Source: Rhodocyclaceae bacterium UBA2250 (lineage in GTDB: Bacteria > Pseudomonadota > Gammaproteobacteria > Burkholderiales > Rhodocyclaceae). Taken from it: DNA of 64,000 nucleotides. The stretch is from positions 13,583 through 77,582 of the forward strand of contig DDXW01000042.1 in the NCBI GenBank assembly GCA_002347285.1, in the 5' to 3' direction. Shown here piece by piece: positions 2,707 to 64,000 of the stretch. A program made the position numbers and the translations under genes. Numbering within the stretch: position 1 is the stretch's first letter; each line of letters begins with the position of its first letter. The notes under the pieces were generated by a model that searched no databases, was not told the DNA's origin, and worked only from the letters and a program-made list of their open reading frames with translations.

Positions 2707-2729
2707 GCCGCCCCGCCAGCGCCGAGTCT
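2707..2729 (-). repeat. 23-bp dispersed motif, 1 mismatch; directly after the parB stop
   Basis: Minus strand AGACTCGGCGCTGGCGGGGCGGC. Confidence 0.92.
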
Positions 2730-3581
2730 TCATCCGCGCAGGCGCTTGAGAATGCCGTCGAGCTGGTCGAGACTGGCGAAGCGGATGGTCAGGGCGCCCG
2801 CCCCCTTGCGGTTCGCGCTGACGTTTACGGTGGCGCCGATGGCATCGGACAACTCTTCCTCCAGCCGCTCGAGATCACGGCTCTTCGCTGGCACCGCATG
2901 GTGCGCCGGCGGGTTGAGTTCGCGCGCCACCTTGCGTTCGGTTTCGCGCACCGACCAGCCCTTGTCGGCCACCTCGGCCGCCAGCCTGCCCTGCTCGCTT
3001 TTCGGCGCGGCGAGGATCGCGCGCGCATGGCCCATCTCGATGTCGCCGGCCATCAGCAGATCCTGCGCCGGCTTGGCGAGCTGCAGCAGGCGCAGCAGGT
3101 TGGTCGCGGCCGAGCGCGAGCGGCCGACGGCATCCGCCGCCTGCTGGTGCGTCATGCCGAATTCATCGATGAGGCGTTGCAGGCCGGCCGCCTCCTCGAG
3201 CGGATTGAGATCCTCGCGCTGGATGTTCTCGATCAGCGACATCGCCAGCGCCGCATCGTCGGGAATCTCGCGGATCAGCACCGGCACCTCGCTCAGGCCG
3301 GCAATCTGCGAGGCACGCCAGCGTCGCTCGCCGGCGATGATCTCGTAGCGGCCGCCCGCGACGGGACGCACCGAGATCGGCTGGATCAGCCCTTGCGCCT
3401 TGATCGAGGCAGCCAGATCCTCGAGCGAGCCCGGATCCATGCGCGTGCGCGGCTGGTACTTGCCGGGCTGCAGGTCGCCGATCGGCAGGGTGCCCTGACG
3501 CTGCCGGTCCGCGGTCTCCTCGTTGCCGGCCAGCAATACGTCGAGCCCGCGGCCCAGGCCTTTCATCTTTGGCGGATTCAC
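2730..3581 (-). CDS. parB: ParB/Spo0J chromosome partitioning protein
   Basis: [34 protein letters not shown]; GTG start overlaps the parA stop. The longer ORF-track start is spurious. Confidence 0.96.
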
Positions 3582-4357
3582 TGCTCCATCTCCCATGTCT
3601 TGACGCGTTCGATCATCTCCTCCGCGAAGGCCAGATAGGCCTGCGCCCCCTTGGCGTTCCGGTCGAACAAAACCCCCGGCACGCCGTAGCTCGGCGCCTC
3701 GGCGAGCCGCACGTTGCGCGGCACCAGGGTCTTGAACACCTTGTCGCCGAAGTGCTCCTCCAGCTGGCGGGACACCTGGTTCGACAGGGTCGAGCGCGGA
3801 TCGAACATCACGCGCAGCAGACCGATGATGCGCAGGTCGCGATTGAGGTTCTTGTGCACCTGCTTGATGGTGTTGACCAGGTCGGACAGCCCTTCCAGCG
3901 CATAGTATTCGCATTGCATCGGAATGATCACGCCATGCGCCGCACACAGGCCGTTGAGGGTCAGGATCGACAGCGAGGGCGGGCAATCGATCAGCACGAA
4001 GTCGTATTCGTCGGCATGCCGGGCGAGCGCTTGCTTGAGGCGCTGCTCGCGCCGCTCGAGGTCGACCATCTCCACCTCAGCCGCGGCCAGGTCGCGATTG
4101 GCAGGCAGCACGGCGTACTGGCCGCTCGGGGACATCGCCCGCACCTCGGGCATGGTCGCCAGCCCGACCAGCATCTGATAGATCGAAGCGGACAGCGTGC
4201 GCTTATCGACGCCGCTGCCCATGGTCGCATTGCCCTGGGGATCGAGATCGACCAACAGCGTGCGCTGCCCGGCCTGCGCCAGCGCGGCGGCTAGGTTGAC
4301 CGCCGTCGTGGTCTTGCCCACTCCGCCCTTCTGGTTGGCTATGGCAAATATGTGCAT
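3578..4357 (-). CDS. parA: ParA/Soj partitioning ATPase
   Basis: NQKGGVGKTTT deviant Walker A, DLDPQGN, DCPPSL, RNVRLAEAPSYG. Confidence 0.97.
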   Translation of the reverse strand: MHIFAIANQKGGVGKTTTAVNLAAALAQAGQRTLLVDLDPQGNATMGSGVDKRTLSASIYQMLVGLATMPEVRAMSPSGQYAVLPANRDLAAAEVEMVDLERREQRLKQALARHADEYDFVLIDCPPSLSILTLNGLCAAHGVIIPMQCEYYALEGLSDLVNTIKQVHKNLNRDLRIIGLLRVMFDPRSTLSNQVSRQLEEHFGDKVFKTLVPRNVRLAEAPSYGVPGVLFDRNAKGAQAYLAFAEEMIERVKTWEMEQ

Positions 4358-4362
4358 GCTCA

Positions 4363-4989
4363 CTATCTCTCCAATTCAAGCAAACAACGTGCGGCCTGCA
4401 GCCCGGGAACGTCCAGATCATGGCACGCTACCATCTTCCAGCCCGCCGGCAAGGCCGCGACCTCGTCGGCAGGATACGCCCCCTTCATCGCCCACAGGCG
4501 CCGCGACAGGTGGCCGGCCAGACACACGAAATCGGACAGGCTGGCGAACGCCCGGGCCAGGACGCCATCGAAATCTCCGACCATGTCTTCGACACGCCCA
4601 GAGTAAATGCTCACATTTGTCAAGTTCAGTTCGATCCTGGCCTGCTGCTGGAACGCCGCTTTCTTTTCGACGCTTTCGACCGAGGTGATCGACCAGTCGG
4701 GCCGCGCGATCGCCAGCACCAGCCCGGGCAGGCCGGCGCCGCTGCCGATGTCGGCGAGGCGATAGGGCCGCCCCGCCAGCGCCGAATCTTGCGCGGCTCG
4801 CGCCAGCACCGGCAGCACGGCGAGCGAGTCGAGCAGATGATGAGTCACCATCTCGCCGGGGTCGCGGATCGCCGTCAGATTGTAGACCTTGTTCCATTTG
4901 GCGAGCAGCGCCAGGTAGGCGAGCAGTTTCCCTTCCGCTCCGGCCGGCAGTTCGAGGCCGAGGACGGCGATGCCTTCCGCCAGCGTCAT
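4363..4989 (-). CDS. rsmG: 16S rRNA m7G527 methyltransferase
   Basis: [28 protein letters not shown]; follows mnmG. Confidence 0.96.
4767..4789 (-). repeat. 23-bp dispersed motif, 2 mismatches; inside rsmG
   Basis: Minus strand AGATTCGGCGCTGGCGGGGCGGC, read as D-S-A-L-A-G-R. Confidence 0.88.
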
Positions 4990-6866
4990 CCCCTCCCCCG
5001 CAGCTTTTTCAGATGGACGAGCAGGATCGAGATCGCCGCTGGCGTCACGCCCTGGATGCGGCTGGCCTGCCCGACGGTCTGCGGCCGATGCTGGGCGAGC
5101 CGTTGCCGGACCTCGAACGACAGGCCGTTGAGCTGCGCGTAATCGAGATCGGGCGGAATGAGCAGGTTCTCCTGCGCCGCCATCCTCGCCACGTCCTCCT
5201 TCTGCCGCTCGATATAGCCGTGGTATTTGGCCTGGATGTCGACCTGCTCGATCACGTCAGCTGCCGTGAGGACGGCGCCGGCACCGGGCAGGGTCATGAG
5301 GCTCTGGTAACTCACTTCCGGACGGCGCAGCAGATCGAACAGCGAGTACTCGCGCTCGATCGGCTTGCCGAGCACGCGCTCGATCTCGTGCATCGCCACG
5401 ACATTGGGATTGACCCAGGTCCGCTTGAGCCGCTCGACTTCCGCCGCGACCGCATCCCTTTTCCGGTTGAACGCATCCCAGCGGACATCGTCGACCAGGC
5501 CGAGCCGGCGCCCGATCTCGGTCAGGCGCAAATCGGCGTTGTCCTCGCGCAGTGAGAGCCGGTACTCGGCGCGACTGGTGAACATGCGGTAGGGTTCCGA
5601 AACCCCGCGCGTGATCAGGTCATCGACCAGCACGCCGAGGTAGGCCTCGTCGCGGCGCGGCCACCATTCCTCCCGCCCATGGGCATGCAAGGCGGCGTTC
5701 AGGCCCGCCAGCAGGCCCTGGGCGGCCGCCTCCTCGTAGCCGGTGGTGCCGTTGATCTGGCCGGCGAAGAACAGTCCACCGATCGCCTGCGTTTCGAGCG
5801 TCGCCCTGAGCGCGCGCGGGTCGAAATAGTCGTACTCGATCGCGTAGCCCGGGCGGGTGATGTGGCAGTTCTCCAGCCCCCGGATCGAATGCACCAGTTC
5901 GAGCTGGACGTCGAACGGCAGGCTGGTCGAAATCCCCTGCGGGTAGTACTCGTGGGTGTCGAGGCCTTCGGGTTCGAGAAAGACCTGATGGGAATCCTTG
6001 CCGGCGAAGCGATGGATCTTGTCCTCGATCGAGGGGCAATAGCGCGGGCCGATGCCTTCGATCACGCCGGTGAACATCGGCGAGCGGTCGAGCCCGCCGC
6101 GGATGATGTCGTGCGTACGTGGATTCGTGTGGGTGATCCAGCACGGTACCTGGCGCGGATGCTGCGCCGGCTTGCCGAGAAAGGAAAACACCGGCACCGG
6201 CGCGTCGCCCGGTTGTTCCTGCATCACCGAGAAATCGATGGTCTTGCCGTCGAGCCGCGGCGGCGTCCCGGTCTTGAGCCGGCCGACCGGCAGGTTCAGT
6301 TCGCGCAGGCGCGCCCCTAGGGACAGCGAAGGCGGGTCGCCGAAGCGGCCGGCCCGATAGTTTTCCAGACCGACATGGACGAGGCCGTTGAGGAAGGTGC
6401 CGGCCGTCAGCACGACCGCCGTCGCCGCAAAGCGCACGCCCAGTTGCGTGACCACCCCGGTGACCCGGTCGCCCTCGACGGTGATGTCGTCCGCCGCCTG
6501 CTGAAAGATGGTCAGGTTCGGCTGGTTCTCGAGCCGCCCGCGGATCGCCTGGCGATAGAGCGAACGGTCGGCCTGTGCGCGCGTCGCGCGCACCGCCGGG
6601 CCCTTCGACGCGTTGAGGATGCGGAACTGGATGCCGGCCTCGTCGGTCGCCGCCGCCATCGCCCCGCCGAGCGCATCGACCTCCTTGACCAGATGACCCT
6701 TGCCGATGCCGCCGATCGACGGATTGCAGGACATCGCGCCGAGCGTCTCGATGTTGTGCGTCAGCAGCAGCGTCTTCACCCCCAGCCGTGCGGCGGCAAG
6801 CGCCGCCTCGGTGCCGGCATGGCCGCCGCCGATCACGATGACGTCAAAACGCTCGGGATAGATCAT
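4986..6866 (-). CDS. mnmG: tRNA uridine-5-carboxymethylaminomethyl(34) synthesis enzyme
   Basis: [50 protein letters not shown]. Confidence 0.98.
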
Positions 6867-6870
6867 TTAA

Positions 6871-6893
6871 AAACTCGGTGCTGACAGGGCGGC
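6871..6893 (+). repeat. 23-bp dispersed motif, 3 mismatches; 4 nt upstream of the mnmG start
   Basis: AAACTCGGTGCTGACAGGGCGGC. Confidence 0.82.
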
Positions 6894-6951
6894 CGGGAAA
6901 GGGGCGCAATCATACGCCGCCATTCCCTTTCAGCCAAAAAAACGCTTCGGA

Positions 6952-6967
6952 TGTTTCACGTGGAACC
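6952..6967. promoter_or_regulatory. parS site 1 (TGTTTCACGTGGAACC)
   Basis: Near-match to the bacterial parS consensus TGTTNCACGTGAAACA, about 3 kb from parAB. Confidence 0.88.
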
Positions 6968-6978
6968 GGCCCCGCTCT

Positions 6979-6994
6979 GGTTCCACGTGAAACA
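6979..6994. promoter_or_regulatory. parS site 2 (GGTTCCACGTGAAACA)
   Basis: Exact reverse complement of site 1, 11 bp away; abuts the livF stop. Confidence 0.88.
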
Positions 6995-7745: not shown

Positions 7746-9539
7746 TCAATCGACTCCACCCAGATAAGCCTCGATCACCGCCGGGTCGCTCTGCACCTCG
7801 CGCGGCAGGCCGGCGGCGATCTTCTTGCCGAACTCCATCACGACGACGCGGTCGGCCAGATCCATGACGAACTCCATGTCGTGCTCCACCAGCAGGATGC
7901 CCATGCCACCGGCGCGCAGCTGCCTGAGCAGTTCCGCCAGCGACCGTTTTTCGAGGAAGCGCAGCCCGGCCGCCGGCTCGTCGAGCAGCAGCAGGCAGGG
8001 ATCGGCGGCGAGCGCCCGCGCGATCTCGACGATGCGCTGCTTGCCGAGCGGCAGGCTGCCGGCCGCATCGTGGAGATGCTCACCGAGGCCGACCCGCGCG
8101 CATTGGCGCGCCGCCTCCGCCAGCAGACGCCCCTCCTCCGCACGCTCGAGATGGAGCATCGCGGCCGGGACGCCATGCCGGCCGCGCAGGTGCGCGCCAA
8201 GCGCGACATTCTCCAGCACGCTCATGCCTGGCAGCAGGCGCACGTGCTGGAAGGTGCGGCTCATGCCCATGCGGGCAATGGCACGCGAACTGCGGCCATC
8301 GACGCGCTCGCCGAGAAAGCGGACTTCACCCGAAGTGGGCGGATCGACGCCGGTGATCAGGTTGAACAGCGTCGACTTGCCCGCCCCGTTGGGGCCAATC
8401 AGCGCCAGAATCTCGCCGCTCGCCACGCCGAGACTCATCCGGTCGTTCGCCACGAGACCGCCGAACTGCTTGACCGCATCCTTGACCTCCAGGAGAGGCG
8501 TCCCGGCCGGCGGCACCGCACGCGCCGGCAAGGGCTCCGCGGCAAACTCGGCGCTGGCGGGGCGGCGCGCGGACGCCGGGAACCAGCGCGTCAGCCAGGG
8601 CCACAGCCCCTCGCGCGCCCGATGCAGCATGAAGATCATCAGCAGTCCGAAGCCGATCACCTCGAAGTTGCCGGTGGCGCCGAACAGTTGCGGCAGCAGA
8701 TCCTGCAGCCATTGCTTGAGCACGGTGATCACCGCGGCGCCGAGCAGCGCGCCCCAGACGTGGGCGGCGCCGCCGATCACCGCCATGAACAGGTATTCGA
8801 TGCCGATGTGCAGGCCGAAGGGCGTCGGATTGACGAAGCGCTGGAGGTGGGCGTAAAGCCAGCCGGAAAGGCAGGCGAACAGGGCGGCGATCAGGAAGAT
8901 GACCATCTTGGCGCGGCCGGTGTCGATGCCCATCGCCTCGGCCATCAACGCACCGCCCTTGAGTGCGCGGATCGCGCGGCCGGCACGCGAGTCGAGCAGG
9001 TTGCTGGTCAGCCACACCGCGGCGAGCAGCACCACCCAGATCAGGTAGTAGAAATGGCGGCCGTCGCGCAACTCGAAACCGCCGAAGCGCAATGGCGGTA
9101 TGCCGCTGATGCCGGTATGGCCGCCGAGGAACTCGAGGTTGCCGAACAGGAAATACAGCGAGATGCCCCAGGCGATCGTGCCGAGCGGCAGATAGTGCCC
9201 CGACAGGCGCAAGGTGAGCAGGCCGAGCAACAGGGCGACCAGCGCGGTCAGCAGCAGCCCCGCGAGCAGGCCGCCCCAAGGGTTGGCCAGCGGCGCCAGC
9301 CAAGCCGGCAAGGCTGTCGCCGTGGTCAGCGCCGCGGTCGCATAGGCGCCCAGACCGACGAAAGCCGCCTGGCCGAAGGAGGTCAGCCCGCCGACGCCGG
9401 TCAGCAGCACCAGACCGAGCGCCACCAGCGCGTAGAGGCCGATGTAATTGAGCAGCGTGATGTAGAACTCGGGCAGGACGAGCGGACCAAGCGCCAGCAG
9501 CGCTAGGGCGACGCCGAGGATTAGGCGCTGGCGGCTCAC
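7746..9539 (-). CDS. Fused LivM-type permease / LivG-type ATPase
   Basis: N-terminal permease ([18 protein letters not shown]) and C-terminal [16 protein letters not shown]; GTG start 9539. Confidence 0.9.
8544..8566 (+). repeat. 23-bp dispersed motif, exact; in the LivM-LivG linker
   Basis: AAACTCGGCGCTGGCGGGGCGGC, antisense to the gene, read as R-P-A-S-A-E-F. Confidence 0.95.
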
Positions 9540-12687: not shown

Positions 12688-14046
12688 CTACTTGCCGATG
12701 CAGAAGCGGCCGAAGATCGTTCCCAGCAGGTCATCGGCGGTGAATTCGCCGGTGATGCGGGACAGAGCCTCCTGCGCCACGCGCAACTCCTCGGCGGCCA
12801 GCTCCAGGCTGGCCAGCCGGCCGGCCGCGGCGGCGAGACGCTGCTCGGCTTCGTCGAGCGCCTCGAGATGGCGCGCCCGCGCCAGCAGCGCATCCTCGCC
12901 ATGGCCGCGCCAGCCGGCGATGCGCAGCAGCTCGTCATGCAGCAGCGGCACCCCCTCCCCGTGCCGCGCGGAAAGAACGAGGTGCACGACGCCCTGCTCG
13001 ACGCGCCGGCACTGCGCCCGCTGCGCGAGGTCGGACTTGTTCTCGACCACCACGCGTTCGATGCCGGCGGGCAGCCGGGCGGCGACCGCCTGGTCGGCGG
13101 GCGTGACGCCGCTGCGCGCGTCGACGATCTGCAGGATGACGTCGGCCCGTTCGATCTCGCGCCAGGTGCGCTCGATGCCGATCTTCTCGACCGTGTCCTC
13201 GGTGTCGCGCAGGCCGGCAGTGTCGATCACGTGCAGCGGGATGCCCTCGACCTGGATGGTTTCGCGCACGGCGTCGCGCGTGGTGCCGGCGATGTCGGTG
13301 ACGATCGCGCGCTCCTCGCCCGCCAGCCGGTTGAGCAGCGAGGACTTGCCGACGTTCGGCAGGCCGGCGAGCACGACGGTCAGGCCGGCGCGCAGCACGC
13401 TGCCTTCTCGGGCGCGGGTGCGCAGGGCCGCCAGGTCGGCGCGCAGCCGCGCCAGCCGCGGCACGATGTCGGTGTCGGCCAGCGGGTCGATTTCCTCGTC
13501 GGGGAAGTCGAGCGTCGCCTCGATCAGGCTGCGCAGCTCGATCAGGCCGTCGGTCAGCGCCCGCACCGCGTGAGAGAACTCGCCGGAGAGCGAGCGCAGC
13601 GCGGCGCGCGCCGCCTGGGCGGAGGCGGCCTCGATCAGGTCGGCGATGCCCTCCGCCTGCGCCAGATCGATCTTGTCGTTCTCGAAGGCGCGGCGCGAGA
13701 ACTCGCCCGGCTCCGCCAGGCGCGCGCCGAGCTCGACGCAGCGCGCCAGCAGCGCGTGCATCACCACCGGTCCGCCGTGGCCGTGCAGTTCGAGCACATC
13801 CTCGCCGGTGAAGGAATGCGGCGCCGAAAAGAACAGCAGCAGGCCCTGGTCGAGCAGCTGGCCGTCGGCGGCGCGAAAGTCGGCGATGACGGCGCGGCGC
13901 GGCTGAAAGGACTCGGCCGGCCGGCCGGTCAGCGTGGCGGCTAGGGAAAGCAGGTCATGGCCCGATACCCTGACGATGCCAACACCACCGCGACCCGGTG
14001 GAGTCGCGATGGCGGCAATGACATCAGTGGGCTTTGAGTCCCGCAC
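12688..14046 (-). CDS. mnmE: tRNA modification GTPase
   Basis: AIATPPGRGGVGIVRVSG, GLPNVGKSSLLN, GTTRD, DTAGLR, C-terminal FCIGK. Confidence 0.98.
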   Translation of the reverse strand: MRDSKPTDVIAAIATPPGRGGVGIVRVSGHDLLSLAATLTGRPAESFQPRRAVIADFRAADGQLLDQGLLLFFSAPHSFTGEDVLELHGHGGPVVMHALLARCVELGARLAEPGEFSRRAFENDKIDLAQAEGIADLIEAASAQAARAALRSLSGEFSHAVRALTDGLIELRSLIEATLDFPDEEIDPLADTDIVPRLARLRADLAALRTRAREGSVLRAGLTVVLAGLPNVGKSSLLNRLAGEERAIVTDIAGTTRDAVRETIQVEGIPLHVIDTAGLRDTEDTVEKIGIERTWREIERADVILQIVDARSGVTPADQAVAARLPAGIERVVVENKSDLAQRAQCRRVEQGVVHLVLSARHGEGVPLLHDELLRIAGWRGHGEDALLARARHLEALDEAEQRLAAAAGRLASLELAAEELRVAQEALSRITGEFTADDLLGTIFGRFCIGK

Positions 14047-21934: not shown

Positions 21935-22357
21935 CTACTTGAAGTTCGCGCCCGACTGGTTCGTCATGAAGATGATGGCGTTCCTGAGTTCTTCCTCGGT
22001 CGCATCGGAGCCTCCCTTGGGCGGCATCGCGCCCTTGCCGGCCGTGGCCGATTTCACCAGCCCGTCGAGGCCCATGGCGATGCGTTGCGCCCAGGCCGCG
22101 TTGTCGCCCATCTTCGGTGCGTTGGCGGCGCCGGTGTCGTGGCAGGCGCCGCAGACGCCCTTGTAGATCGCCTCGCCGGAACGACCGCCCGCCGGGGCCG
22201 CCGCCTCGGCAGCGCCGAGTTTCACTTTCGCCACCGGCTGGATGCGGACATTGACGGCTTCCTCATCCATTTTCGGCTTGCCGCCCATTGCGACGGCGAG
22301 TGCCGGCGACAGGAGGAACAGACCGACGGCCAGCGTGTGCGGAAAACGCTTGCTCAT
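21935..22357 (-). CDS. Mono-heme cytochrome c5-family protein
   Basis: Signal peptide, RIQPVAKV, CGACH, GAMPPKGG. Confidence 0.88.
   Translation of the reverse strand: MSKRFPHTLAVGLFLLSPALAVAMGGKPKMDEEAVNVRIQPVAKVKLGAAEAAAPAGGRSGEAIYKGVCGACHDTGAANAPKMGDNAAWAQRIAMGLDGLVKSATAGKGAMPPKGGSDATEEELRNAIIFMTNQSGANFK
22200..22222 (-). repeat. 23-bp dispersed motif, 1 mismatch; inside the cytochrome c5 gene
   Basis: Minus strand AAACTCGGCGCTGCCGAGGCGGC, read as K-L-G-A-A-E-A. Confidence 0.9.
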
Positions 22358-22379: not shown

Positions 22380-22456
22380 TGGCGCGCCCGGCGCGATTCG
22401 AACGCACGACCCCTGCCTTCGGAGGGCAGTACTCTATCCAGCTGAGCTACGGGCGC
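22380..22456 (-). tRNA. tRNA-Arg(CCG)
   Basis: GCGCCCGTAGCTCAGCTGGATAGAG...CTCCGAA...GTTCGAATC...GGGCGCGCCA, 77 nt with encoded CCA. Confidence 0.97.
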
Positions 22457-27777: not shown

Positions 27778-28535
27778 AACCTCCTGAAACACCGGTCGTG
27801 CTCGTCACCGGCGCCGCACGGCGCGTCGGCGCGGAGATCGCGCGTGCGCTGCACGCGGCCGGCGCGAACCTCGTGCTGCACTATCGCGCGTCGGCCGAGG
27901 AAGCGGAACGGCTGGCCGCCGACCTCAACGTCCGCCGCGCAAACTCGGCGCTGGCGAGGCGGCGCGACCTGCGCGACATGGCGGGCTTGGCGAGCCTGGT
28001 CGAGGAGGCGGTCGCGCACTTCGGCCGGCTCGACGCGCTGGTGAACAACGCTTCGAGCTTCTTCCATACGCCGGTCGGCACGATCGACGAAGCGGCCTGG
28101 GACGATCTGGTCGGCAGCAACCTCAAGGGACCGTTGTTCCTGTCGCAGGCGTCTGCGCCGCATCTGGCCGGCTCATTGCTGCCTGGTGGCGGCTGCATCG
28201 TAAACATCACCGATATCCACGCCGAGCGTCCTTTGAAGGGCTATCCGGTCTACAGCGTCGCCAAGGCCGGGCTGCTCGGCCTGACGCGCGCGCTGGCGCT
28301 CGAGCTCGCGCCGCAGGTGCGCGTCAATGCCGTCGCGCCCGGCGCGATCGAATGGCCGGAGAACGAGGAGCATTTTCCGTCCGTCGAGCAGCAGGCCATC
28401 ATCGAGCACACGCTGCTCAAGCGTACCGGAACGCCTGCCGACATCGCGCGCACGGTGAAATTCCTGATCTTCGACGCACCCTACATCACCGGCCAGGTCA
28501 TCAACGTCGACGGCGGCCGAACCGCACATTTATGA
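27774..28535 (+). CDS. Pteridine reductase (SDR, FolM/PTR1-like)
   Basis: [39 protein letters not shown]. Confidence 0.88.
27941..27963 (+). repeat. 23-bp dispersed motif, exact; inside the pteridine reductase gene
   Basis: AAACTCGGCGCTGGCGAGGCGGC, read as N-S-A-L-A-R-R. Confidence 0.95.
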
Positions 28536-29425
28536 GCACCTACAAGCAGGCCCACAAGCAGGAGTTCGAGGCCAACAAGCTCGCCAAGCGGCTGCGCCGC
28601 GAGGTGGGCCGGGCGATCGCCGACTTCAACATGATCGAGGACGGCGACCGCGTGATGGTCTGCCTCTCGGGCGGCAAGGACTCGCACGCGCTGCTCGACA
28701 TCCTGCTGTATCTCAAGGAGAAGGCGCCGATCCGCTTCGAGGTGATCGCCGTCAATCTCGACCAGAAGCAGCCGGGCTTTCCGGCCGAGGTGCTGCCGGC
28801 CTATCTCGACGGCCTCGACATTCCCTACCGCATCGTCGAGGAGGACACCTACTCGATCGTCAAGCGCGTGATCCCGGAAGGCAAGACCACCTGCTCGCTT
28901 TGTTCGCGGCTGCGGCGCGGCATCCTCTATCGCGTCGCCGACGAACTGGGCGCGACCAAGATCGCGCTCGGCCACCACCGCGACGACATCCTCGCCACGC
29001 TGTTCCTCAACCTGTTCTTCGCCGCCAAGCTCAAGGCGATGCCGCCCAAGCTGGTGTCGGACGATGGCCGCCACATCGTCATCCGTCCGCTCGCCTACTG
29101 CCGCGAGAAGGACCTGGTCGAATGGGCGCAGTTGCGAGCGTTTCCGATCATCCCCTGCAACCTCTGCGGCAGCCAGCCCAACCTCCAGCGCCAGCAGGTC
29201 GCCGAGATGCTGCGTGACTGGGATCGGCGCTTCCCCGGCCGCATCGAGACGATGTTCAACAGCTTGTCCAACGTCGTGCCTTCGCACCTGCTGGATGCGA
29301 AGCTCTTCGACTTCGCGAATCTCAAGGCGACCGGCGTGCCCGATCCCGACGGCGACATCGCTTTCGACGAGGATTCCGCCGCCTCGCCAGCGCCGAGTTT
29401 TCCAATTCACTTCACAACGTCATGA
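28532..29425 (+). CDS. ttcA: tRNA 2-thiocytidine(32) synthetase
   Basis: SGGKDS PP-loop, [22 protein letters not shown]. Confidence 0.95.
29378..29400 (-). repeat. 23-bp dispersed motif, exact; in the ttcA 3' end
   Basis: Plus strand GCCGCCTCGCCAGCGCCGAGTTT, read as A-A-S-P-A-P-S-F. Confidence 0.95.
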
Positions 29426-34618: not shown

Positions 34619-34641
34619 GCCGCCTCGCCAGCGCCGAGTTT
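34619..34641 (-). repeat. 23-bp dispersed motif, exact; shares the last base of the ubiB stop
   Basis: Minus strand TG|AAACTCGGCGCTGGCGAGGCGGC. Confidence 0.95.
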
Positions 34642-42741: not shown

Positions 42742-42764
42742 AAATTCGGTTCTGGCGGGGCGGT
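42742..42764 (+). repeat. 23-bp dispersed motif, degenerate (4 mismatches); between ccp and fbaB
   Basis: AAATTCGGTTCTGGCGGGGCGGT, directly after a 10-bp stem hairpin (42710-42741). Confidence 0.6.
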
Positions 42765-42801: not shown

Positions 42802-43851
<1,050 letters not shown>

Positions 43852-45289: not shown

Positions 45290-47250
45290 AGCACTTCCTC
45301 CTTTGGCTGCTGTGGCTGCCGCTGGCGGCGCGGGCGCTGCCGCATCTCGAACTCGATGTGTCGCTCGATCCTGCGACGCGGCAGCTCGACGTGCGCGCGA
45401 CGTTGTCGGACGAGCATGAGCTGCGCTCCTTCCGGCTCGGCCGGGAGTACGAGGTCACCGCGCTGCAGGTGAATGGACGGCCCCATGCCCGGTCGAGCCG
45501 CCCCGCCAGCGCCGAGTTTCCACTGCCGGCCGGCGCACGCCGGGTGGAACTTGCCTACCGCGCAACGCTGCCGCCGACGCCGACGCTCGATCACCGCCAG
45601 GTCCTCGGCCAGCGCGGCGGCACGGCCGGGCAGCAGGGCAGCTTCCTGCCCGCTTCGGCCGGCTGGTATCCCGATCCGGGCGTGCCGTTCAGCTATCGAG
45701 CCGCGCTGCGCCTGCCGGCTGGCCAGAAGGGGCTGGTGCCGGGCGAGCTGCGCGAGGAATCGGAGTCGTCCGCCGGCTATCGTGCCGTGTTCGATTTCCC
45801 CCATCCGGCCGAGGGCATCGACCTGATGGCCGGGCCCTACGTGGTCCGCGAGCGAGCGCTTGAGGTCGGCGCGCGCACGATCCGCATCCGCACCTGGTTC
45901 CATCCCGAGCTGCAGGAGTTCGCGCAGCCTTACCTCGACGATTCGGCGCGCTACATCGCGCGCTATTCGCAGCTGATCGGCGCCTATCCGTTCTGCATGT
46001 TCAGCATCGTCTCCAGCCCCACCCCCACCGGCTACGGCATGCCGAGCCTCACCTACCTCGGCCGCGAGGTGATCCGCCTGCCCTTCATCCGCGCCACCTC
46101 GCTCGGCCACGAGGTGCTGCACAACTGGTGGGGCAACGGCGTCTATCCCGACTGGCGGAGCGGCAACTGGTCCGAGGGCCTGACGACCTTCCTCGCCGAC
46201 TACGCCTACAAGGAAGATGCGGGTGCGGACGCCGCGCGCGAGATGCGCCTCGGCTGGCTGCGCAACCTCGCCGCCGTGCCGCCCGGCGAGGACAGCGCGC
46301 TCAAGGACTTCACCGCGCGCCGCCACGGCATCTCCTCGATCATCGGCTACGACAAGGCGGCGATGGTCTTCCTGATGCTGCGCGACGAGATTGGCAAGGA
46401 CGCCTTCGAGCGCGGCCTGCGCCTCTTCTGGGAACGCAAGCGCTTCCGCGAGGCCGGCTGGGCCGATCTCGAAGCCGCCTTCGCGCAGGCGGCGGGCCGC
46501 CCGCTGCGCGGCTTTTTCCGGCAGTGGGTCGACCGGCCCGGCGCACCTGCCCTGCGGCTCAAGTCGGCCGCGATGCAGGGCGGCCAGCTCGAACTCGGCA
46601 TCGAACAGAACGGCGGCTATGCGCTGGAAATTCCCTTGCGGCTCGGCTTCGCCGACCACACGGAAACACGGAAAGTGCGCACGACCGGACGGGAAACCAA
46701 GCTCGCCATCGACAACGCGGCGGGCGCGCAGACGGTCGAACTCGATCCCGACTACCGCCTCTGGCGGCGCGTCGATCCTGCGACGCTGCCCGCGATCCTG
46801 CGCGAAGTCTTCGTCGCGCCGCGTGCCGCGCTGGTCTTACTCGAAGTCGATGCAAACGCCCGCACGGCCGCACTCGCCCTGGCCGCGCGGGTGCTTGATG
46901 CAAAGCCGGTGCAGGCGGAAGACGGCGCCGCCGGCCTGCCCGGCAGCGCGCCCGCACTCGTCATTGGCCCGGATGCCGCCGCCGACGTCTGGCTCGCCCG
47001 CCACGGCCTGCCGCCGCGGCCCGCGGCCGCACACGGCAGCGCCCAGGTCTGGACCGGTCGCGATGCAGGCGGTCGGCCCTATGCCGTGGTTGCGGCGCGC
47101 GATCCGGCCGCCCTCGCGGCGCTCGCGCGGCCCCTGCCCCACTACGGCAGCCAGAGCTGGCTCGCCTTCGACGGCGCGCGCGCCATCGACAAGGGCGTCT
47201 GGCCGCCGCGCAGCGCGCTGCTTCAGGTTAGAACGGGCGCATCACACTGA
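45286..47250 (+). CDS. Exported M1-family zinc aminopeptidase
   Basis: HEVLHNWWGN (HExxH), WSEGLTT, IGYDKAAMVF; ATG overlaps the upstream stop. Confidence 0.88.
   Translation: MKHFLLWLLWLPLAARALPHLELDVSLDPATRQLDVRATLSDEHELRSFRLGREYEVTALQVNGRPHARSSRPASAEFPLPAGARRVELAYRATLPPTPTLDHRQVLGQRGGTAGQQGSFLPASAGWYPDPGVPFSYRAALRLPAGQKGLVPGELREESESSAGYRAVFDFPHPAEGIDLMAGPYVVRERALEVGARTIRIRTWFHPELQEFAQPYLDDSARYIARYSQLIGAYPFCMFSIVSSPTPTGYGMPSLTYLGREVIRLPFIRATSLGHEVLHNWWGNGVYPDWRSGNWSEGLTTFLADYAYKEDAGADAAREMRLGWLRNLAAVPPGEDSALKDFTARRHGISSIIGYDKAAMVFLMLRDEIGKDAFERGLRLFWERKRFREAGWADLEAAFAQAAGRPLRGFFRQWVDRPGAPALRLKSAAMQGGQLELGIEQNGGYALEIPLRLGFADHTETRKVRTTGRETKLAIDNAAGAQTVELDPDYRLWRRVDPATLPAILREVFVAPRAALVLLEVDANARTAALALAARVLDAKPVQAEDGAAGLPGSAPALVIGPDAAADVWLARHGLPPRPAAAHGSAQVWTGRDAGGRPYAVVAARDPAALAALARPLPHYGSQSWLAFDGARAIDKGVWPPRSALLQVRTGASH
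45497..45519 (-). repeat. 23-bp dispersed motif, exact; inside the M1 peptidase gene
   Basis: Plus strand GCCGCCCCGCCAGCGCCGAGTTT, read as R-P-A-S-A-E-F. Confidence 0.95.
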
Positions 47251-48244: not shown

Positions 48245-48267
48245 AAAGTCGGCGCTGGCGGGGCGGC
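48245..48267 (+). repeat. 23-bp dispersed motif, 1 mismatch; katG-DUF423 gap, with inverted half-copy at 48281-48292
   Basis: AAAGTCGGCGCTGGCGGGGCGGC ... CCGCCCCGCCAG. Confidence 0.92.
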
Positions 48268-55417: not shown

Positions 55418-55458
55418 TAATATAGCACTGCATTATCGTTTGCCACGTGGAGAAGTTC

Positions 55459-56160
55459 ATGAAGAAACAGATACAGCATTTCGCCCTGGTCGCCGCGCTG
55501 TCATGCCTGACCGCCCTCCCGGCGCATGCCGAGCCGCCGATGAACGTCGACGACGCCGGCACGCTCGGCAAGGGCGGCCTGAAGGTCGAGGGCGTCCTGG
55601 GCCGCGACGACAAGGAGCGCGGCGGCGAGCTGGTGTTCGGCTTCGCGCCGGTCGATGACGTCGAGATCGGCATTTCCGTCGCGCGCGCCACCGACCATGA
55701 TCCCGATCCTTCCTCCAAGCTGCGCGGCACCGGCATCGGCGTCAAGTGGGTGCCGATCCAGAACGAGTCCGGCTGGTCGCTCGGCGCCAGCTTCGGTTAC
55801 GGCCATACGCGGGTGAATGAGCGTTCGGCGCCGGACAAGTTCACCGAGAAGGAGTACGCCTTCTCCGGCCTTGCCACCTACCGTTTCGAGCCAGGCCAGG
55901 TCGTGCACCTGAACCTCGGCGCGACGCGGGTCAAGGCGCAGGGGGACAGCGATAGCGTCGGCACCTGGGGAGCGGGCTACGAGCATCCCCTCGCGGAAAA
56001 CCTCAAGCTGACGGCGGAAATCTTCGGCGAGGAACATGCCGGACCGGACAAGGCGATCGGCCTGCGCTACGAGATTTTCGAAGGCTTCAAGGTCTCCGGC
56101 GCGGTCGGACGCGGCAACGACCGCAGCTTCGGCCAGGTCGGCTTTTCCTGGGAATTCTGA
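55459..56160 (+). CDS. Putative outer-membrane beta-barrel protein
   Basis: Signal peptide (LPAHA|E), alternating amphipathic strands, C-terminal VGFSWEF beta-signal. Confidence 0.78.
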   Translation: MKKQIQHFALVAALSCLTALPAHAEPPMNVDDAGTLGKGGLKVEGVLGRDDKERGGELVFGFAPVDDVEIGISVARATDHDPDPSSKLRGTGIGVKWVPIQNESGWSLGASFGYGHTRVNERSAPDKFTEKEYAFSGLATYRFEPGQVVHLNLGATRVKAQGDSDSVGTWGAGYEHPLAENLKLTAEIFGEEHAGPDKAIGLRYEIFEGFKVSGAVGRGNDRSFGQVGFSWEF

Positions 56161-56183
56161 AAACTCGGCGCTGGCGGGGCGGC
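56161..56183 (+). repeat. 23-bp dispersed motif, exact; directly after the outer-membrane protein stop
   Basis: TGA|AAACTCGGCGCTGGCGGGGCGGC. Confidence 0.95.
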
Positions 56184-58658: not shown

Positions 58659-58701
58659 AGCCGTGCCGCAGCAGATCGATACCCTGAAACAAGGAGCCAC
58701 G

Positions 58702-59004
58702 ATGAACGAACTGCAAGCGAACCTGGAACAGCCCCCGGCCCGCATGGTGGCCGGCGCTCTCGCCCACCTCTCCCGCCACATGGAAACCGGCTGCCAGCGT
58801 TCCGCCTATCTGGCGGCGATGCTGCTGGAGAAGGTGGCCAACGATGCGGAGGCCGATGACCATCTGCGTCGCCACGCGCGCGAACTGGTCGAGATTCTCG
58901 ACCGCGACGGCGAGCATGACAGCAGCACGTCGCACGAGGCCCTGCCGGAGCGTCGCGCCGGCGCGCAGGAAAGCGCGACCGAGATGCCGATGGGCGCCTT
59001 CTGA
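58702..59004 (+). CDS. Small hypothetical protein downstream of feoB
   Basis: AAGGAG SD then MNELQANL...HMETGCQRSAY...HARELVE; 100 aa. Confidence 0.7.
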   Translation: MNELQANLEQPPARMVAGALAHLSRHMETGCQRSAYLAAMLLEKVANDAEADDHLRRHARELVEILDRDGEHDSSTSHEALPERRAGAQESATEMPMGAF

Positions 59005-59027
59005 GCCGCCTCGCCGGCGCCGAGTTT
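59005..59027 (-). repeat. 23-bp dispersed motif, 1 mismatch; fills the gap between two convergent stops
   Basis: Minus strand AAACTCGGCGCCGGCGAGGCGGC. Confidence 0.92.
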
Positions 59028-59602
59028 TATGCGAGATCGGCGGCCAGCGAATCGCGCGTCGCCGATGCCAGGGTGGTCTCGGCCTGGTAGTTGGGGTGGT
59101 CGATGCCGACGCGGATCGCTGCGCCGTTCTTCACTGCCTGGCACATCCCGGGCGTCAGCTCGAAGCGCAGGAAGTGGACAGAAGCAGTCTTTTCCTCGGT
59201 CTCGCGGTCGAGATCCTCGTTGGCGATCGGCGTCACGCGCGCGAAATCGGCGACCTGCACCCAGACCGCCTTCTCGATGCCGAGCAGCCTCGCGAGCTGG
59301 ATCTTGCGCTCCGCCTCGTCGGGAAACTCGATCATGAAGGTCGCCTTCCAGTTGCTGCCGTCCGGGATCAGCGGGTTGTAGACGTCGAGCTCCTCCTGGA
59401 TCGCCTCGGGCTCGAACATGCGTTCGAGGCGCAGCATCTCCTGCACCTGGTACTGCATCGTCAGCTTGTCCTCGAAGTGCAGCGTGGCGTGCGGGCCGAC
59501 CGGCACGATGCGAATCTTCTTGTGGGCGATGACCTTGGCGCGAAACTCGGGGCGCACGCGGGCGTACTGTTCGAGGCTGAACAACTGGTCGTGGGTGAGC
59601 AT
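59027..59602 (-). CDS. DUF3501 family protein
   Basis: YARVRPEFR, FEDKLTMQYQVQEMLR, YNPLIPDG, KTASVHFLRF, GIDHPNY. Confidence 0.88.
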   Translation of the reverse strand: MLTHDQLFSLEQYARVRPEFRAKVIAHKKIRIVPVGPHATLHFEDKLTMQYQVQEMLRLERMFEPEAIQEELDVYNPLIPDGSNWKATFMIEFPDEAERKIQLARLLGIEKAVWVQVADFARVTPIANEDLDRETEEKTASVHFLRFELTPGMCQAVKNGAAIRVGIDHPNYQAETTLASATRDSLAADLA

Positions 59603-62346: not shown

Positions 62347-62377
62347 AGGGCGCCCGCCACAAGCGGAGCGCCCTTTT
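62347..62377 (+). terminator. Hairpin with U-tract between ahpC and ahpF
   Basis: AGGGCGC-CCGC/CACAA/GCGG-A-GCGCCCT-TTT. Confidence 0.6.
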
Positions 62378-62420
62378 CGGACCCACTCGATAGCTAATCT
62401 TAATTGAAAAGGAATCAGCG

Positions 62421-63980
62421 ATGCTTGACGCCAATATGAAAGAACAAGTCCGTGCCTATCTCGAACGCCTCGAACGTCCGATCGAGCTGGTCGCCGCGCT
62501 GGACGACGGCGCAAGCTCGCGGGAGATGCGCGGCCTGCTCGAAGACATCGCCAGCCTGTCGGACAAGGTCGGCGTGCGTTTCGATGGCGCCGACGAACGC
62601 GTGCCTTCCTTCACCGTCGGCCCAGTGGGCGAGGTCGCGCGCATCCGCTTCGCCGGCCTGCCGATGGGCCACGAATTCACGTCCCTGATCCTCGCGCTGC
62701 TGCAGAGCGGCGGCTATCCGCCCAAGACGGACGCCGACACCATCGCGCGCATCCAGCGGCTGACCGGGGAGTTCCGCTTCGAGGTATACGTCTCCCTCGA
62801 CTGCCACAACTGCCCGGACGTGGTGCAGGCGCTCAACCTGATGGCGGTGCTCAACCCCGGCGTCAGCTGCACGATGATCGAGGGTGGCCTGTTCCGCGCC
62901 GAGGTCGAGGCGAAGAACGTGCTGGCGGTGCCGATGGTCTTCCTCAACGGTGAGCACTTCGGCCAGGGCCGCATGACCCTCGAAGAAATCCTCGCCAAGG
63001 TCGGCGACGGCGACAGCGCCGCCCAAGCCCACGCGCTGTCGGCGCGCGCGCCCTACGACGTGCTCGTGGTCGGCGGCGGCCCGGCCGGCGCGGCGGCGGC
63101 GATCTACGCCGCACGCAAGGGCATCCGCACCGGCATCGTCGCCGAGCGCTTCGGCGGCCAGGTGATGGACACGCTGGGCATCGAGAACTTCATTTCCGTC
63201 GAATACACCGAGGGCCCGAGGCTCGCGGCGGCGATGGAGGAGCACGTCAAGCAGTACGGCGTGGACATCATGCGCGGCGAGCGCGCCGCGGCCCTGGTGC
63301 CGGCGGCCCAGCCCGGCGCCATGGCCGAGCTGACCCTCGCCAACGGCGCGATCCTTCGGTCGAAGTCCATCATCCTCGCCACCGGCGCGCGCTGGCGCGA
63401 GATGAACGTGCCCGGCGAGGCCGAGTTCCGCAGCAAGGGCGTGTGCTTCTGCCCGCACTGCGACGGCCCGCTGTTCAAGAACAAGCGCGTCGCGGTGATC
63501 GGCGGCGGCAATTCGGGCGTCGAGGCGGCCATCGACCTCGCCGGCATCGTCGGCCACGTGACGCTGATCGAGTTCGACACCAAGCTGCGCGCCGACGCGG
63601 TGCTGCAGGAAAAGCTGCGCAGCCTGCCGAACGTGAGCATCGTCATGAACGCGCAGACCACCGAGGTCACCGGCAGCGACAAGATGAACGGCCTGAACTA
63701 CAAGGACCGGGCCACGGGCGAGATCCACCGCGTCGAGCTCGAAGGCATCTTCGTGCAGATCGGCCTGCTGCCGAACACGGACTTCGTCAAGGACACGCTG
63801 ACCCTGTCGAAATTCCGCGAGATCGAGATCAACGCCAAGGGCGAGACCTCGGCCACCGGCGTGTTCGCCGCCGGCGACTGCACCACGCAGCCCTACAAGC
63901 AGATCATCATCAGCATGGGCGCGGGCGCGACCGCCTCGTTGTCGGCCTTCGACTACCTGATCCGCAACTCCGCGCAGTAA
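62421..63980 (+). CDS. ahpF: Alkyl hydroperoxide reductase F
   Basis: CHNCPDV, GGGPAG, CPHCDG, GGGNSG, FAAGD. Confidence 0.98.
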
Positions 63981-63993
63981 GCGGCAGGCATGA

Positions 63994-64000
63994 AAACTCG
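63994..64000 (+). repeat. Probable motif copy truncated by the window edge, after ahpF
   Basis: Window ends in AAACTCG, 13 nt after the ahpF stop; only 7 bases visible. Confidence 0.45.

Follow-up and report, generated by a model that had tools for sequence, protein, structure and literature searches.

What is the short word that recurs along this stretch of DNA from the Rhodocyclaceae bacterium UBA2250, and does it mark DNA for uptake? The original prediction, made within the 64,000-nt stretch analyzed here (the window), was a dispersed 23-bp motif acting either as an uptake or self-recognition signal or as the site of an abundant DNA-binding protein. Sequence-specific DNA uptake has for decades been known in only two families, both host-associated.

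By pattern search and mismatch spectrum, we recovered all 14 predicted copies, as well as a fifteenth cut by the window end, at their predicted starts (Table 1). This equals 14-15 copies per 64 kb, or ~1 per 4.6 kb. The predicted mismatch classes (six exact copies, five with one mismatch, and one each with two, three, and four), strands (6 plus, 8 minus), and division between ORFs (six copies, starting at 4767, 8544, 22200, 27941, 29378, and 45497) and intergenic DNA (eight copies) all held as well. Thirteen matches with ≤3 mismatches occurred at the listed starts, compared to none in 100 shuffles. Six exact copies were observed where ~3e-6 were expected under an order-5 Markov model trained on the window, motif copies included. 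Mismatches were distributed bimodally, with copies at 0-5 and the background beginning at 6-7. Spacing within the window was more even than random (CV 0.60, P=0.025), and the smallest gap between copies was 1437 bp (P=0.005).

The predicted 23-bp core is real, but the full unit is 25 bp, as the logo places purines at −1 and +24 and shows zero information in the flanks beyond ±1. This unit is sharp-edged and non-palindromic and reads R-AAA[C/G]TCGGCGCTGGCG[R]G[R]CGGC-R, or R-AAA-N-TCGGCGCTGGCG-R-N-R-CGGC-R when free positions are marked. It holds ~38 bits of information over 25 bp with no shorter enriched core seen, and its ten-mers were almost confined to full copies in the window, indicating that the unit is all-or-none. 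The near-invariant blocks are A3, TCGG (T5-G8), G13, and RCGG (R19-G22).

Table 1. Motif copies and weaker candidates in the window, with the corresponding sites in other loci (L numbers).
Position	Strand	Copy	Context	Orthologous site
2707..2729	-	1 mismatch	parB-atpI spacer; adjoins parB stop TGA 2730-2732	Copy missing in L138, L139, L140
4767..4789	-	2 mismatches	Within rsmG (4363-4989, -), sense; encodes loop QDSALAGR	L138 11768, L139 12060, L140 12069, L244 12123; loop 6 residues shorter in motif-free L245; decayed remnant in L246
6871..6893	+	3 mismatches	4 nt upstream of mnmG start codon (6866), antisense to mnmG; occupies most of presumed mnmG 5' leader	L138 9683, L139 9973, L140 9974, L244 9974; absent in L245, L246
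8544..8566	+	Exact	Antisense, linker of fused permease/ATPase ABC gene (7746-9539, -)	L009 7977 (23/23 identical), L138 8028, L244 8298; forward copy next to decayed reverse remnant in L140; unrelated sequence, 2 residues shorter, in L245
12665..12687	-	1 mismatch	Fills 30-nt spacer from mnmE stop (12688-12690) to tauE start (12657)	L009 3853, L138 3921, L244 4175; spacer 16 nt in motif-free L245
13876..13898	+	Doubtful, degenerate, 4 mismatches	Antisense within mnmE; additional to the original list	Loosely similar sequence in L009
22200..22222	-	1 mismatch	Sense, within cytochrome c gene (21935-22357, -)	
25901	+	Weaker candidate, 5 mismatches	Additional to the original list	
27941..27963	+	Exact	Sense, within short-chain dehydrogenase gene (27774-28535); encodes NSALARR	
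29378..29400	-	Exact	Antisense, last ~16 codons of PP-loop ATPase gene ending 29425	
34619..34641	-	Exact	First A is last stop-codon base of ABC1-kinase gene (34641-36185, -)	
42742..42764	+	Diverged, 4 mismatches	Between convergent cytochrome c peroxidase (41640-42692) and DeoC aldolase (42802-43851) genes	
45497..45519	-	Exact	Antisense, within peptidase-M1-like gene (about 45280-47250, +)	L042: same site, opposite orientation
48245..48267	+	1 mismatch	Between katG stop (48304) and DUF423 start (48236); followed by 12-nt inverted partner, giving a hairpin	
56161..56183	+	Exact	Adjoins stop codon of outer-membrane beta-barrel gene (55447-56160)	
59005..59027	-	1 mismatch	Exactly fills gap between convergent genes 58663-59004 (+) and DUF3501 59027-59602 (-); shares 1 nt with one stop codon	
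63994..64000	+	Probable, cut by window end; first 7 bases AAACTCG	13 nt past ahpF-like gene stop (63980)	

Outside the window, the motif is spread on either strand at ~1 per 3-7 kb in the Sulfuritalea/Sulfuricystis-like source and in many other Rhodocyclaceae, a genome-wide distribution that is inferred from at least 120 unrelated metagenome loci and six origin-proximal loci rather than from a whole-genome count. In those metagenome loci, further copies occurred at ~1 per 6.6 kb, and the complete genome of the isolate Sulfuricystis multivorans had 6 copies in 21.6 kb. The form AAAGTCGGCGCTGGCGRGACGGC was abundant in metagenomic DNA of 54-70% G+C and in Sulfuricystis, Sulfuritalea, Methyloversatilis, and other Rhodocyclaceae. 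Dialects, which the original prediction had proposed looking for in relatives, were found in this survey: the C4/G19 form of the window recurred in L087, L045, and L112, most other DNA carried G4/A19, and position 4 was free in Sulfuricystis. The window motif is a minority dialect. Integron cassettes contained multiple copies, located just before attC; one motif-bearing cassette of 316 bp was amplified 5-6 times, and in one cassette array all copies pointed in the same direction. Searches of 7.3 Gb of plasmids and 2.3 Gb of phage records returned no convincing copy (best matches 20-23/23, most by chance). A gene for a type IV major pilin is also present on one of the contigs with the motif.

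We compared the parB-mnmE stretch among relatives. Four of its five window sites were common to L138, L139, L140, L244, or L009, with cross-genus orthologous sites within rsmG, 5' of mnmG, after mnmE, and in the ABC-gene linker. Identity between orthologues was 87% in the motif and 69% in its flanks. The parB-atpI copy at 2707, missing from three of these relatives, is a lineage-specific gain. One syntenic relative (L245) had zero copies, and another (L246) retained one good copy along with decayed remnants, a decay that argues for active maintenance in other lineages. Genomes bearing the motif also had extra sequence at its sites: rsmG is longer by 6 residues (18 nt), the ABC linker by 2 residues (6 nt), and the mnmE-tauE spacer by 15 nt. 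A 9-nt indel accompanied the motif in L075 vs. L032. These length differences (6, 9, 15, and 18 nt) were never 23-25 nt. One conserved copy lies ~60 nt from the parS pair next to mnmG. These comparisons show a 25-bp word, apparently one of recognition at the DNA level, whose sites are passed on from genus to genus and which is much better conserved than its surroundings.

The extra sequence, together with the sharp boundaries and all-or-none unit, could instead be the mark of a selfish mini-repeat without cell function, copy-pasted by a recombinase, by an integron-type or gene-conversion process, or by templated insertion. The 9-nt indel, the opposite orientation of copies at the same site, and the presence of copies just before attC in integron cassettes are in line with this idea. 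However, insertion of 23 or 25 nt would break reading frames, whereas the coding copies are all in frame with net changes in multiples of three. The sites are also kept across genera despite ~30% flank divergence, mismatches fall in blocks rather than evenly, and the same word is found in genomes of 54-70% G+C. Moreover, the unit has no terminal inverted repeats, target-site duplication, or palindrome, and no transposase is encoded in the 64-kb window, in agreement with the original prediction that it is neither REP-like nor a MITE. We consider such an origin unlikely. A MITE in particular was rejected on the lack of flank information beyond ±1 and on the length differences. REP/BIME elements with their RAYT resemble the motif in being short, present in hundreds of copies, enriched in intergenic and 3'-end positions, and variable between species, but they are imperfect palindromes, strictly extragenic, and often clustered, whereas the motif is single and occurs in frame within genes. 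With no internal inverted repeat, ~1/3 of copies in ORFs, and no RAYT in the window, this candidate was rejected as well.

The motif is about as frequent as Chi is in E. coli, and positions 10-17 read GCTGGCGG, one base off E. coli Chi (GCTGGTGG), which raises the option of a Chi-like recombination hotspot or RecBCD regulator; the shared direction of all copies in one cassette array would suit such a role. Yet around the dnaA/origin region we saw no replication polarity, with ~8/16 copies co-oriented vs. roughly 75% expected for Chi, and the motif is thus not polar like Chi or KOPS, as had been claimed. Whereas Chi and KOPS are polar 8-mers, and known Chi sites span 5-8 nt, the motif is 25 bp and unpolarized, and its Chi-like part is the least conserved, since the octamer region covers the most mismatch-tolerant positions (9-12 and 14-18) while the invariant blocks lie outside it. 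A Chi-like function is accordingly very improbable.

Many intergenic copies, in sense orientation, touch the stop codon of the gene upstream or run into it; such overlap is explained by the RAAA start of the motif, which fits TAA or TGA. These stop-adjoining copies, along with a few hairpins followed by T runs (L048, L084, and the window copy at 48245), could suggest an element acting in RNA, such as a terminator arm, 3'UTR stabilizer, small-RNA target, or translational signal near stops. Orientation, however, was unbiased in a larger sample, both after gene ends (40 co-oriented vs. 44 counter-oriented copies) and within ORFs (41 sense vs. 31 antisense, in all three frames). Hairpin partners accompanied ~6-10% of copies (with a partner of ≥8 nt, 10 of 155 intergenic and 2 of 72 coding copies), and the copy that follows atpC is located beyond the T run of the intrinsic terminator, outside the transcript. 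No predicted terminator overlapped a copy in the 44-64 kb part of the window, and Rfam gave zero match to the motif. Of all the explanations weighed here, an RNA-level role seems the most remote.

With uptake sequences as a class, the motif shares a large over-representation on both strands, a lack of replication polarity, presence in coding and non-coding DNA, use of several frames, and dialects. About 1/3 of copies lie deep in ORFs, and coding copies sit in poorly conserved loops or linkers; in N. meningitidis, 34.5% of DUS are deep in ORFs, and DUS and USS coding copies are likewise at poorly conserved protein positions (PMC2817400). The Neisseriaceae DUS (AT-GCCGTCTGAA and its dialects, with ComP as the receptor) is also a single, non-palindromic, over-represented word on both strands, with ~1/3 of copies in genes, dialects, conservation at orthologous sites, and a home in the Betaproteobacteria (PMC3630211, PMC2817400). 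It differs in being shorter, at 10-12 bp against 23-25 bp here, and in its conserved CTG core (GCCGTCTGAA and dialects); the two have no core in common. Sequence kinship with DUS was rejected, as the longest word shared with any of eight DUS dialects is the 7-nt GCCGTCT, a length also attained by 493/3000 shuffled motif sets (16%). The Pasteurellaceae USS (AAGTGCGGT core with AT-rich flanks) is similarly a multi-block signal of >20 bp with graded mismatch tolerance that uses all coding frames and accumulates in place at low-constraint sites. Still, its sequence is unrelated, it combines a core with weak flanks where the motif is all-or-none and G+C-rich throughout, and ~65% of H. influenzae USS are in ORFs vs. 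~1/3 of motif copies. A USS identity was ruled out by the absence from the logo of the 9-bp core, AAGTGCGGT or ACAAGCGGT, and of helically phased AT tracts. Overall, these comparisons uphold the claim that the motif resembles neither known core. Uptake sequences in Neisseria and Haemophilus are also 4-5 times denser than the 1 per 4.6 kb here. Approximately half of DUS and USS are in terminators, many as inverted pairs (bioRxiv 10.1101/2025.10.24.684340), whereas the motif, with its few hairpin partners, seldom belongs to a terminator or an inverted pair. In a neighboring betaproteobacterial group without canonical DUS, an unexplained 10-mer, GTTGGCCGAA, is over-represented at ~1100 copies in Lutiella nitroferrum and Pseudogulbenkiania (Frye et al. 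2013, Table S1D); compared by this 10-mer alone, its sequence differs from our motif.

Taken together, the best reading is that the motif serves as a protein-read signal at the DNA level, held by selection or by uptake-driven bias. A lineage-specific, sequence-specific reader protein would contact A3, T5-G8, G13, and R19-G22 while tolerating change elsewhere, and copies would persist because they are continually favored and decay where the reader has been lost. We tentatively suggest, as the likeliest mechanism, that this signal enhances DNA uptake and would form a third family, with no sequence kinship to DUS or USS and roughly double their length. Word-bearing fragments would be preferred by a DNA receptor, at the surface or in the periplasm, that belongs to the type IV pilus or competence machinery. 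Cells would then favor DNA of their own species for uptake and recombination, and the resulting bias would by itself preserve and multiply the word where constraint is low, as in protein loops, at gene ends, and in short spacers.

The original alternative of an uptake or self-recognition signal or an abundant DNA-binding-protein site gained comparative support, comprising the dialects, cross-genus positions, poorly conserved loops, block conservation, and lineage loss or decay, but no ComP-like receptor was found. A search for the minor pilin ComP (Pfam PF16732), with a query validated against PDB 2M3K, returned only Neisseria proteins, and in a profile search of 1.84 billion representatives, which cover motif-bearing genomes at most in part, the named full-length ComP-like proteins were all from Neisseriaceae. 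Literature searches likewise found no report of natural competence in Rhodocyclales and no description of the 25-bp motif, in line with the claim that nothing similar had been described outside the two families, to which a 2025 survey still confines uptake sequences (bioRxiv 10.1101/2025.10.24.684340). Several points also count against uptake: a length far beyond any known uptake sequence, the extra sequence at sites, the few hairpins, and the low density. Additionally, a 25-bp, all-or-none unit without a shorter core would be hard to build by point mutation alone.

All of the comparative evidence suits any protein-read chromosomal site equally. The motif could be bound by an abundant chromosomal protein unrelated to uptake, with each site kept by selection, for example, a chromosome-organizing or condensin-loading factor, a replication or transcription roadblock, or the "self" mark of a defense or repair system. 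The cross-genus positions, block conservation typical of a protein footprint, even spacing, lack of a strand rule, and lineage loss would all be expected, and a 25-bp site is easier to reconcile with a multi-domain or tandem-bound protein than with a pilin receptor. The conserved copy near the parS pair fits too, and copies in integron cassettes could be decoys or cargo. However, copies that sit in coding loops regardless of orientation and frame give no hint of local regulation, and turnover to the opposite orientation at the same site fits a need for a copy somewhere nearby rather than a precise site function. To our knowledge, no bacterial nucleoid protein has ~1000 non-palindromic 25-bp sites. 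We view this explanation as somewhat less likely than uptake.

Returning to uptake, we raise even more cautiously the fuller possibility that this is the first uptake-sequence family outside Neisseriaceae and Pasteurellaceae, a multi-block 25-bp "self" tag whose receptor would have no relation to ComP and whose dialects extend over environmental Rhodocyclaceae (such as Sulfuritalea, Sulfuricystis, and Methyloversatilis). If true, free-living betaproteobacteria would have a third word, much longer than the other two and unrelated to them, self-recognition would have evolved repeatedly, and Rhodocyclaceae of groundwater and wastewater would be naturally competent and recombine DNA of their own kind preferentially. 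There would be a new receptor to find, competence would become testable in an ecologically important and genetically poorly tractable group, and adding the 25-mer to DNA might make Rhodocyclaceae transformable. Should uptake prove not to be the role of the motif, the protein binding ~1000 conserved, non-palindromic 25-bp sites per genome would represent a new kind of chromosome-wide system. Sulfuricystis multivorans and Sulfuritalea hydrogenivorans are cultured carriers, and cultured carriers with complete genomes exist. The motif-free L245 and motif-decaying L246 allow phylogenetic profiling for the reader protein, and the question is directly testable either way.

Searching the window with the 23-bp consensus at ≤3 mismatches returned 13 matches, each coinciding with one of the 14 copies originally predicted; the copy at 42742 is present with 4 mismatches, and at 63994 the first 7 bases of a further copy begin, cut by the window end. 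The predicted mismatch classes (six exact copies, five with one mismatch, and one each with two, three, and four), strands (6 plus, 8 minus), and locations (six in ORFs, eight intergenic) likewise held. None of 100 dinucleotide-preserving shuffles of the window gave any match, and in the window alone, an order-5 Markov model expects 3e-6 exact copies where 6 were observed. Window copies carry 0–5 mismatches, followed by a clear gap and a background starting at 6–7. Their spacing is evener than random (CV 0.60, P = 0.025), with no gap smaller than 1.4 kb (P = 0.005). The host DNA is betaproteobacterial, with 65% G+C and the gene order atp-parAB-rsmG-mnmG ... mnmE-yidC-rnpA-rpmH / dnaA-dnaN-gyrB. 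Its MnmG is 89–91% identical to those of Sulfuritalea sp., Sulfuricystis multivorans, and Rhodocyclaceae MAGs, and the same DNA was recovered from metagenomes of hydrocarbon, aquatic, and bioreactor origin. The 64-kb window contains no transposase and no gene for phage functions or competence, in agreement with the predicted absence of a transposase and of cognate machinery.

Aligned copies define a 25-bp unit, R-AAA[C/G]TCGGCGCTGGCG[R]G[R]CGGC-R, because the aligned flanks are uninformative apart from one purine per side. The unit has no internal palindrome, as expected from the original prediction, and an inverted partner lies nearby in only ~6–10% of copies. Ten-mers of the motif are almost confined to full copies, so the motif is all-or-none, without a shorter enriched core; only the central CGGCGCTGGCGG departs from this, being a word of ordinary G+C-rich coding DNA. 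Across 131 imperfect copies, positions A3, T5-C6-G7-G8, G13, and R19-C20-G21-G22 are near-invariant, and mismatches are tolerated at positions 1–2, 4, 9–12, 14–18, and 23. Such an uneven block pattern fits a protein footprint and not the neutral decay of a dead repeat.

Approximately one third of 256 unique copies lie deep inside ORFs (41 sense, 31 antisense) and use all three frames in either orientation. This proportion resembles the 34.5% of Neisseria meningitidis DNA uptake sequences (DUS) found in ORFs (PMC2817400). The remaining two thirds or so are intergenic or ≤150 nt from a gene boundary, and overall, copies are shifted about two-fold out of deep coding sequence. Intergenic arrangements number 25 and 20 in the two tandem types, 13 convergent, and 4 divergent, with a preference for gene 3′ ends and an avoidance of divergent promoter regions. 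Overlaps of 1 nt with TAA/TGA are frequent because the RAAA start of the motif fits very short spacers. After stop codons, 40 copies are co-oriented with the gene and 44 counter-oriented; together with the sense and antisense counts in ORFs, this rejects the impression, given by the window alone, of a sense-strand post-stop element.

Other local roles fared no better. An RNA element is very unlikely given the lack of transcription-strand bias, and Rfam returned no match to the motif. A terminator role is unlikely, as few copies have a hairpin partner and none overlaps a predicted terminator within 44–64 kb; at the atpC site, the motif lies beyond the T run of the terminator. The predicted lack of polarity near dnaA was also observed, with about half of the copies pointing each way around the origin region, unlike KOPS and Chi. 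A Chi-like role via the embedded GCTGGCGG is unlikely because of this lack of polarity and because GCTGGCGG is the least conserved part of the motif.

To place the copies in an evolutionary context, we compared six syntenic loci: L009 (Methyloversatilis MAG), L138 (Sulfuricystis multivorans complete genome, AP018718.1), L139 (Sulfuritalea MAG), L140, L244, and the motif-free L245. L246 was added as a partly syntenic locus. In 22 orthologous pairs, identity is 87% for the motif and 69% for its ±120-nt flanks, the motif figure being inflated by ascertainment; stronger evidence is that copies stand at the same positions across relatives (see table). Further sites shared among the relatives lie within yidC and immediately 3′ of the atpC terminator, and independent metagenome pairs at 70–78% identity keep 21–23 of 23 motif bases. 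For the copy after parB, the parB-atpI spacer alignment is too diverged to separate insertion from in-place origin. In the mnmG leader, the reverse-complemented motif stops just short of the ATG and takes up most of the stretch between a conserved TATGAT-like box and the start codon; the leader of L245 differs.

Positions of motif copies and associated features in the window and in other loci
Locus	Position	Feature	Orthologous copies or detail
Window	2707	Copy after parB	None in relatives; lineage-specific
Window	4767	Copy inside rsmG	L138, L139, L140, L244
Window	6864–6960 (minus)	mnmG without recognisable Shine-Dalgarno sequence	Also L138, L139, L140, L244
Window	6871	Copy 3–4 nt upstream of mnmG start codon	L138, L139, L140, L244
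Window	6952–6967, 6979–6994	Two parS sites (GGTTCCACGTGAAACA, 1–2 mismatches to TGTTNCACGTGAAACA) between ABC ATPase gene and mnmG	60–100 nt from copy 6871; kept in L138, L139, L140, L244, L246, and motif-free L245
Window	8544	Copy in linker of fused permease/ATPase gene	L009 (23/23 identical), L138, L244
Window	12665	Copy after mnmE stop, filling the 30-nt mnmE-tauE spacer	L009, L138, L244
Window	22383–22456 (minus)	Single tRNA gene (Rfam RF00005, 61 bits)	Just downstream of cytochrome c gene holding copy 22200
Window	59005	Copy exactly filling the gap between two convergent genes	
L140	1–4023	Island with Prim-Pol/PriCT_1/DUF927 and four unannotated genes	In place of yidC-mnmE side
L246	1–6383	Chromosomal integron adjoining tauE-mnmG	In place of mnmE-yidC side
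L246	5394–6383	Integron integrase, bona fide	TIGR02249, 496 bits
L155 (IMGVR_UViG_3300009945_000063)	629–2290	316-bp non-coding tandem unit	5–6 times, ~91% identity
L155	3489–4269	Frameshifted (decayed) intI	
L181	10319–10400	Motif, then identical 32 nt	
L154	690–770	Motif, then identical 32 nt	
L166	6969–7050	Motif, then identical 32 nt	
L033	27	Motif, then identical 32 nt	
L022	8–30	Motif near contig end	
L004	23–45	Motif near contig end	
L103	5–27	Motif near contig end	
L137	22–44	Motif near contig end	
L183	3–25	Motif near contig end	
L202	4–26	Motif near contig end	

Not all relatives have kept the motif. L245, a Sterolibacteriaceae MAG (GCA_030247725.1) with the same gene order and an MnmG 83% identical, lacks the motif throughout 21.9 kb, where no other word is enriched either. 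L246 retains a single good copy, and decayed remnants are left at its rsmG and atpC sites. The motif is therefore under active maintenance in some lineages and absent or decaying in others. At coding sites, the loop of the motif-free genome is the shorter one: in rsmG it reads AGVDT, as in E. coli, and in carriers QKSALAGRQY, with 6 residues gained. The ABC linker is 2 residues longer in carriers, whose mnmE-tauE spacer measures 30–31 nt against 16 nt in the genome without the motif. Between loci L075 and L032, the motif stands opposite a stretch that resembles it loosely and is shorter by 9 nt. Because length changes inside genes are always multiples of three and never 23–25 nt, copies are not simple insertions of the unit, and the alignments suggest that new copies are not pure substitutions either. 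The predicted lack of target duplications was upheld, and a check for fixed boundaries found no clean presence or absence of 23–25 bp. Unlike MITEs, the motif has neither terminal repeats nor target duplications, and unlike REP/BIME elements, it has no palindrome, sits in frame inside genes, and has no RAYT nearby. A copy-paste origin could still account for the birth of copies, but it would leave their maintenance unexplained, and we consider it improbable.

In two cases, the same site holds the motif in opposite orientation between lineages: the peptidase-M1 gene of the window vs. L042, and the ABC linker of L140, in which a forward copy adjoins what is left of a decayed reverse copy. These flips argue that the pressure is to have a copy wherever one is tolerated, and not to serve an exact local function. 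The L140 island contains no motif copy, and the adjoining conserved 18 kb has three.

The window dialect (C4/G19) had only 11 exact matches in the reference-genome collection, each in another MAG (Rhodocyclaceae, Sulfuritalea, Methyloversatilis, or HGW-Betaproteobacteria-11), and the 8-kb loci around them hold further G4/A19 copies. A metagenome scan with a degenerate pattern recovered at least 120 loci (689 kb) from numerous samples of freshwater, sediment, and wastewater, the predominant form among the matches listed being AAAGTCGGCGCTGGCG[G/A]GACGGC. The motif had at first looked rare because the reference-genome scan used the window dialect, whereas the main dialect, revealed by the metagenome scan, is G4/A19. 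Besides the seeding match, the metagenome loci listed hold ~1 further copy per 6.6 kb. Motif-bearing loci among the matches listed span 54–70% G+C, so the motif is not a by-product of base composition. Plasmids (7.3 Gb) and GenBank phage records (2.3 Gb) gave partial matches only, none with an E-value <0.1; the closest covered 22/23 bases in a Streptomyces plasmid (H4). It is common for metagenome and IMG/VR contigs to start or stop only a few bases from a motif copy, probably an assembly effect of a 23–25-bp word present hundreds of times per genome.

We set aside the lower apparent density in IMG/VR “viral” contigs as evidence because several of these loci are not phage but host DNA or arrays of integron cassettes. 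In the L155 array, each 316-bp unit carries one motif copy in constant orientation and an attC-like site, GCCTAAC...GTTAGGC, and the neighbours include the decayed intI and lambda-like tail genes J, L, and I. The repeat was rejected as a structured RNA (no Rfam match; fold z-score 0.3, not stabler than shuffles) and as a protein repeat (period not a multiple of 3, low-complexity translation), and its best reading is a non-coding integron cassette that has been amplified. In 19 IMG/VR loci, the motif is followed by an identical 32 nt, GGTGCAGGGCGACATGCTTTTGCCTGCYAACG, and usually then by a stop codon and an attC-like hairpin repeat (..CGG-stem-TTTATCG-stem-TCCGTGTTGA..GTTAG..). This module sits behind at least 8 different upstream sequences, with the in-frame reading ...KVGAGGTAVQGDMLLPAN and then stop. 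The L246 cassettes encode a HigB toxin/HTH antitoxin pair and a CSD-DUF1294 protein, with attC-like hairpins between them, and this array has 0 motif copies.

The motif is a DNA-level word: strand-neutral, inherited by position, block-conserved, dialect-varying, and lost in some lineages. Most simply, a lineage-specific, sequence-specific protein would read it. Of the systems known, the Neisseriaceae and Pasteurellaceae uptake sequences alone combine all of these properties, and for that reason, a DNA-uptake or self-recognition signal ranks first, as a tentative reading held at somewhat less than even confidence. The shared properties include a preference for poorly conserved residues (PMC2817400, PMC3630211). 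A 2025 survey still defines them as DUS plus the Pasteurellaceae USS only (bioRxiv 10.1101/2025.10.24.684340). Literature searches for the motif sequence found nothing, and none of the literature found linked uptake sequences, interspersed repeats, or competence to this group, consistent with the original prediction that no such motif had been described outside those two families. That prediction had also held that the motif resembles neither known core; its common word with DUS, GCCGTCT, is not significant as a sign of kinship because 16% of shuffled motifs reach it. Abundant unexplained words do have a precedent in neighbouring betaproteobacteria: Lutiella nitroferrum 2002 and Pseudogulbenkiania sp. 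NH8B each carry ~1100 copies of the 10-mer GTTGGCCGAA, not classed as DUS (Frye et al. 2013, PMC3630211, Table S1D). This 10-mer differs in sequence from our motif and may represent a further dispersed signal, as yet uncharacterised, in a family nearby.

The original prediction of an uptake or self-recognition signal, or of a site for an abundant DNA-binding protein, thus stands in part. In its favour are the comparative fit and the exclusion of REP, MITE, and Chi; against uptake are the ways in which the motif is unlike known uptake sequences, namely its length (25 bp, ~38 bits), all-or-none character, rarity in terminators, and lower density. In a search for the DUS receptor ComP, named matches fell in Neisseriaceae only and no orthologue was found, and our literature search found no report of natural competence in Rhodocyclales. 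One motif-bearing contig encodes a type IV major pilin, which gives weak support for uptake. An abundant chromosomal DNA-binding protein with a role other than uptake would explain the same data almost as well, and we regard it as possible, if rather unlikely. Should the uptake role fail, the motif may prove to be something categorically new.
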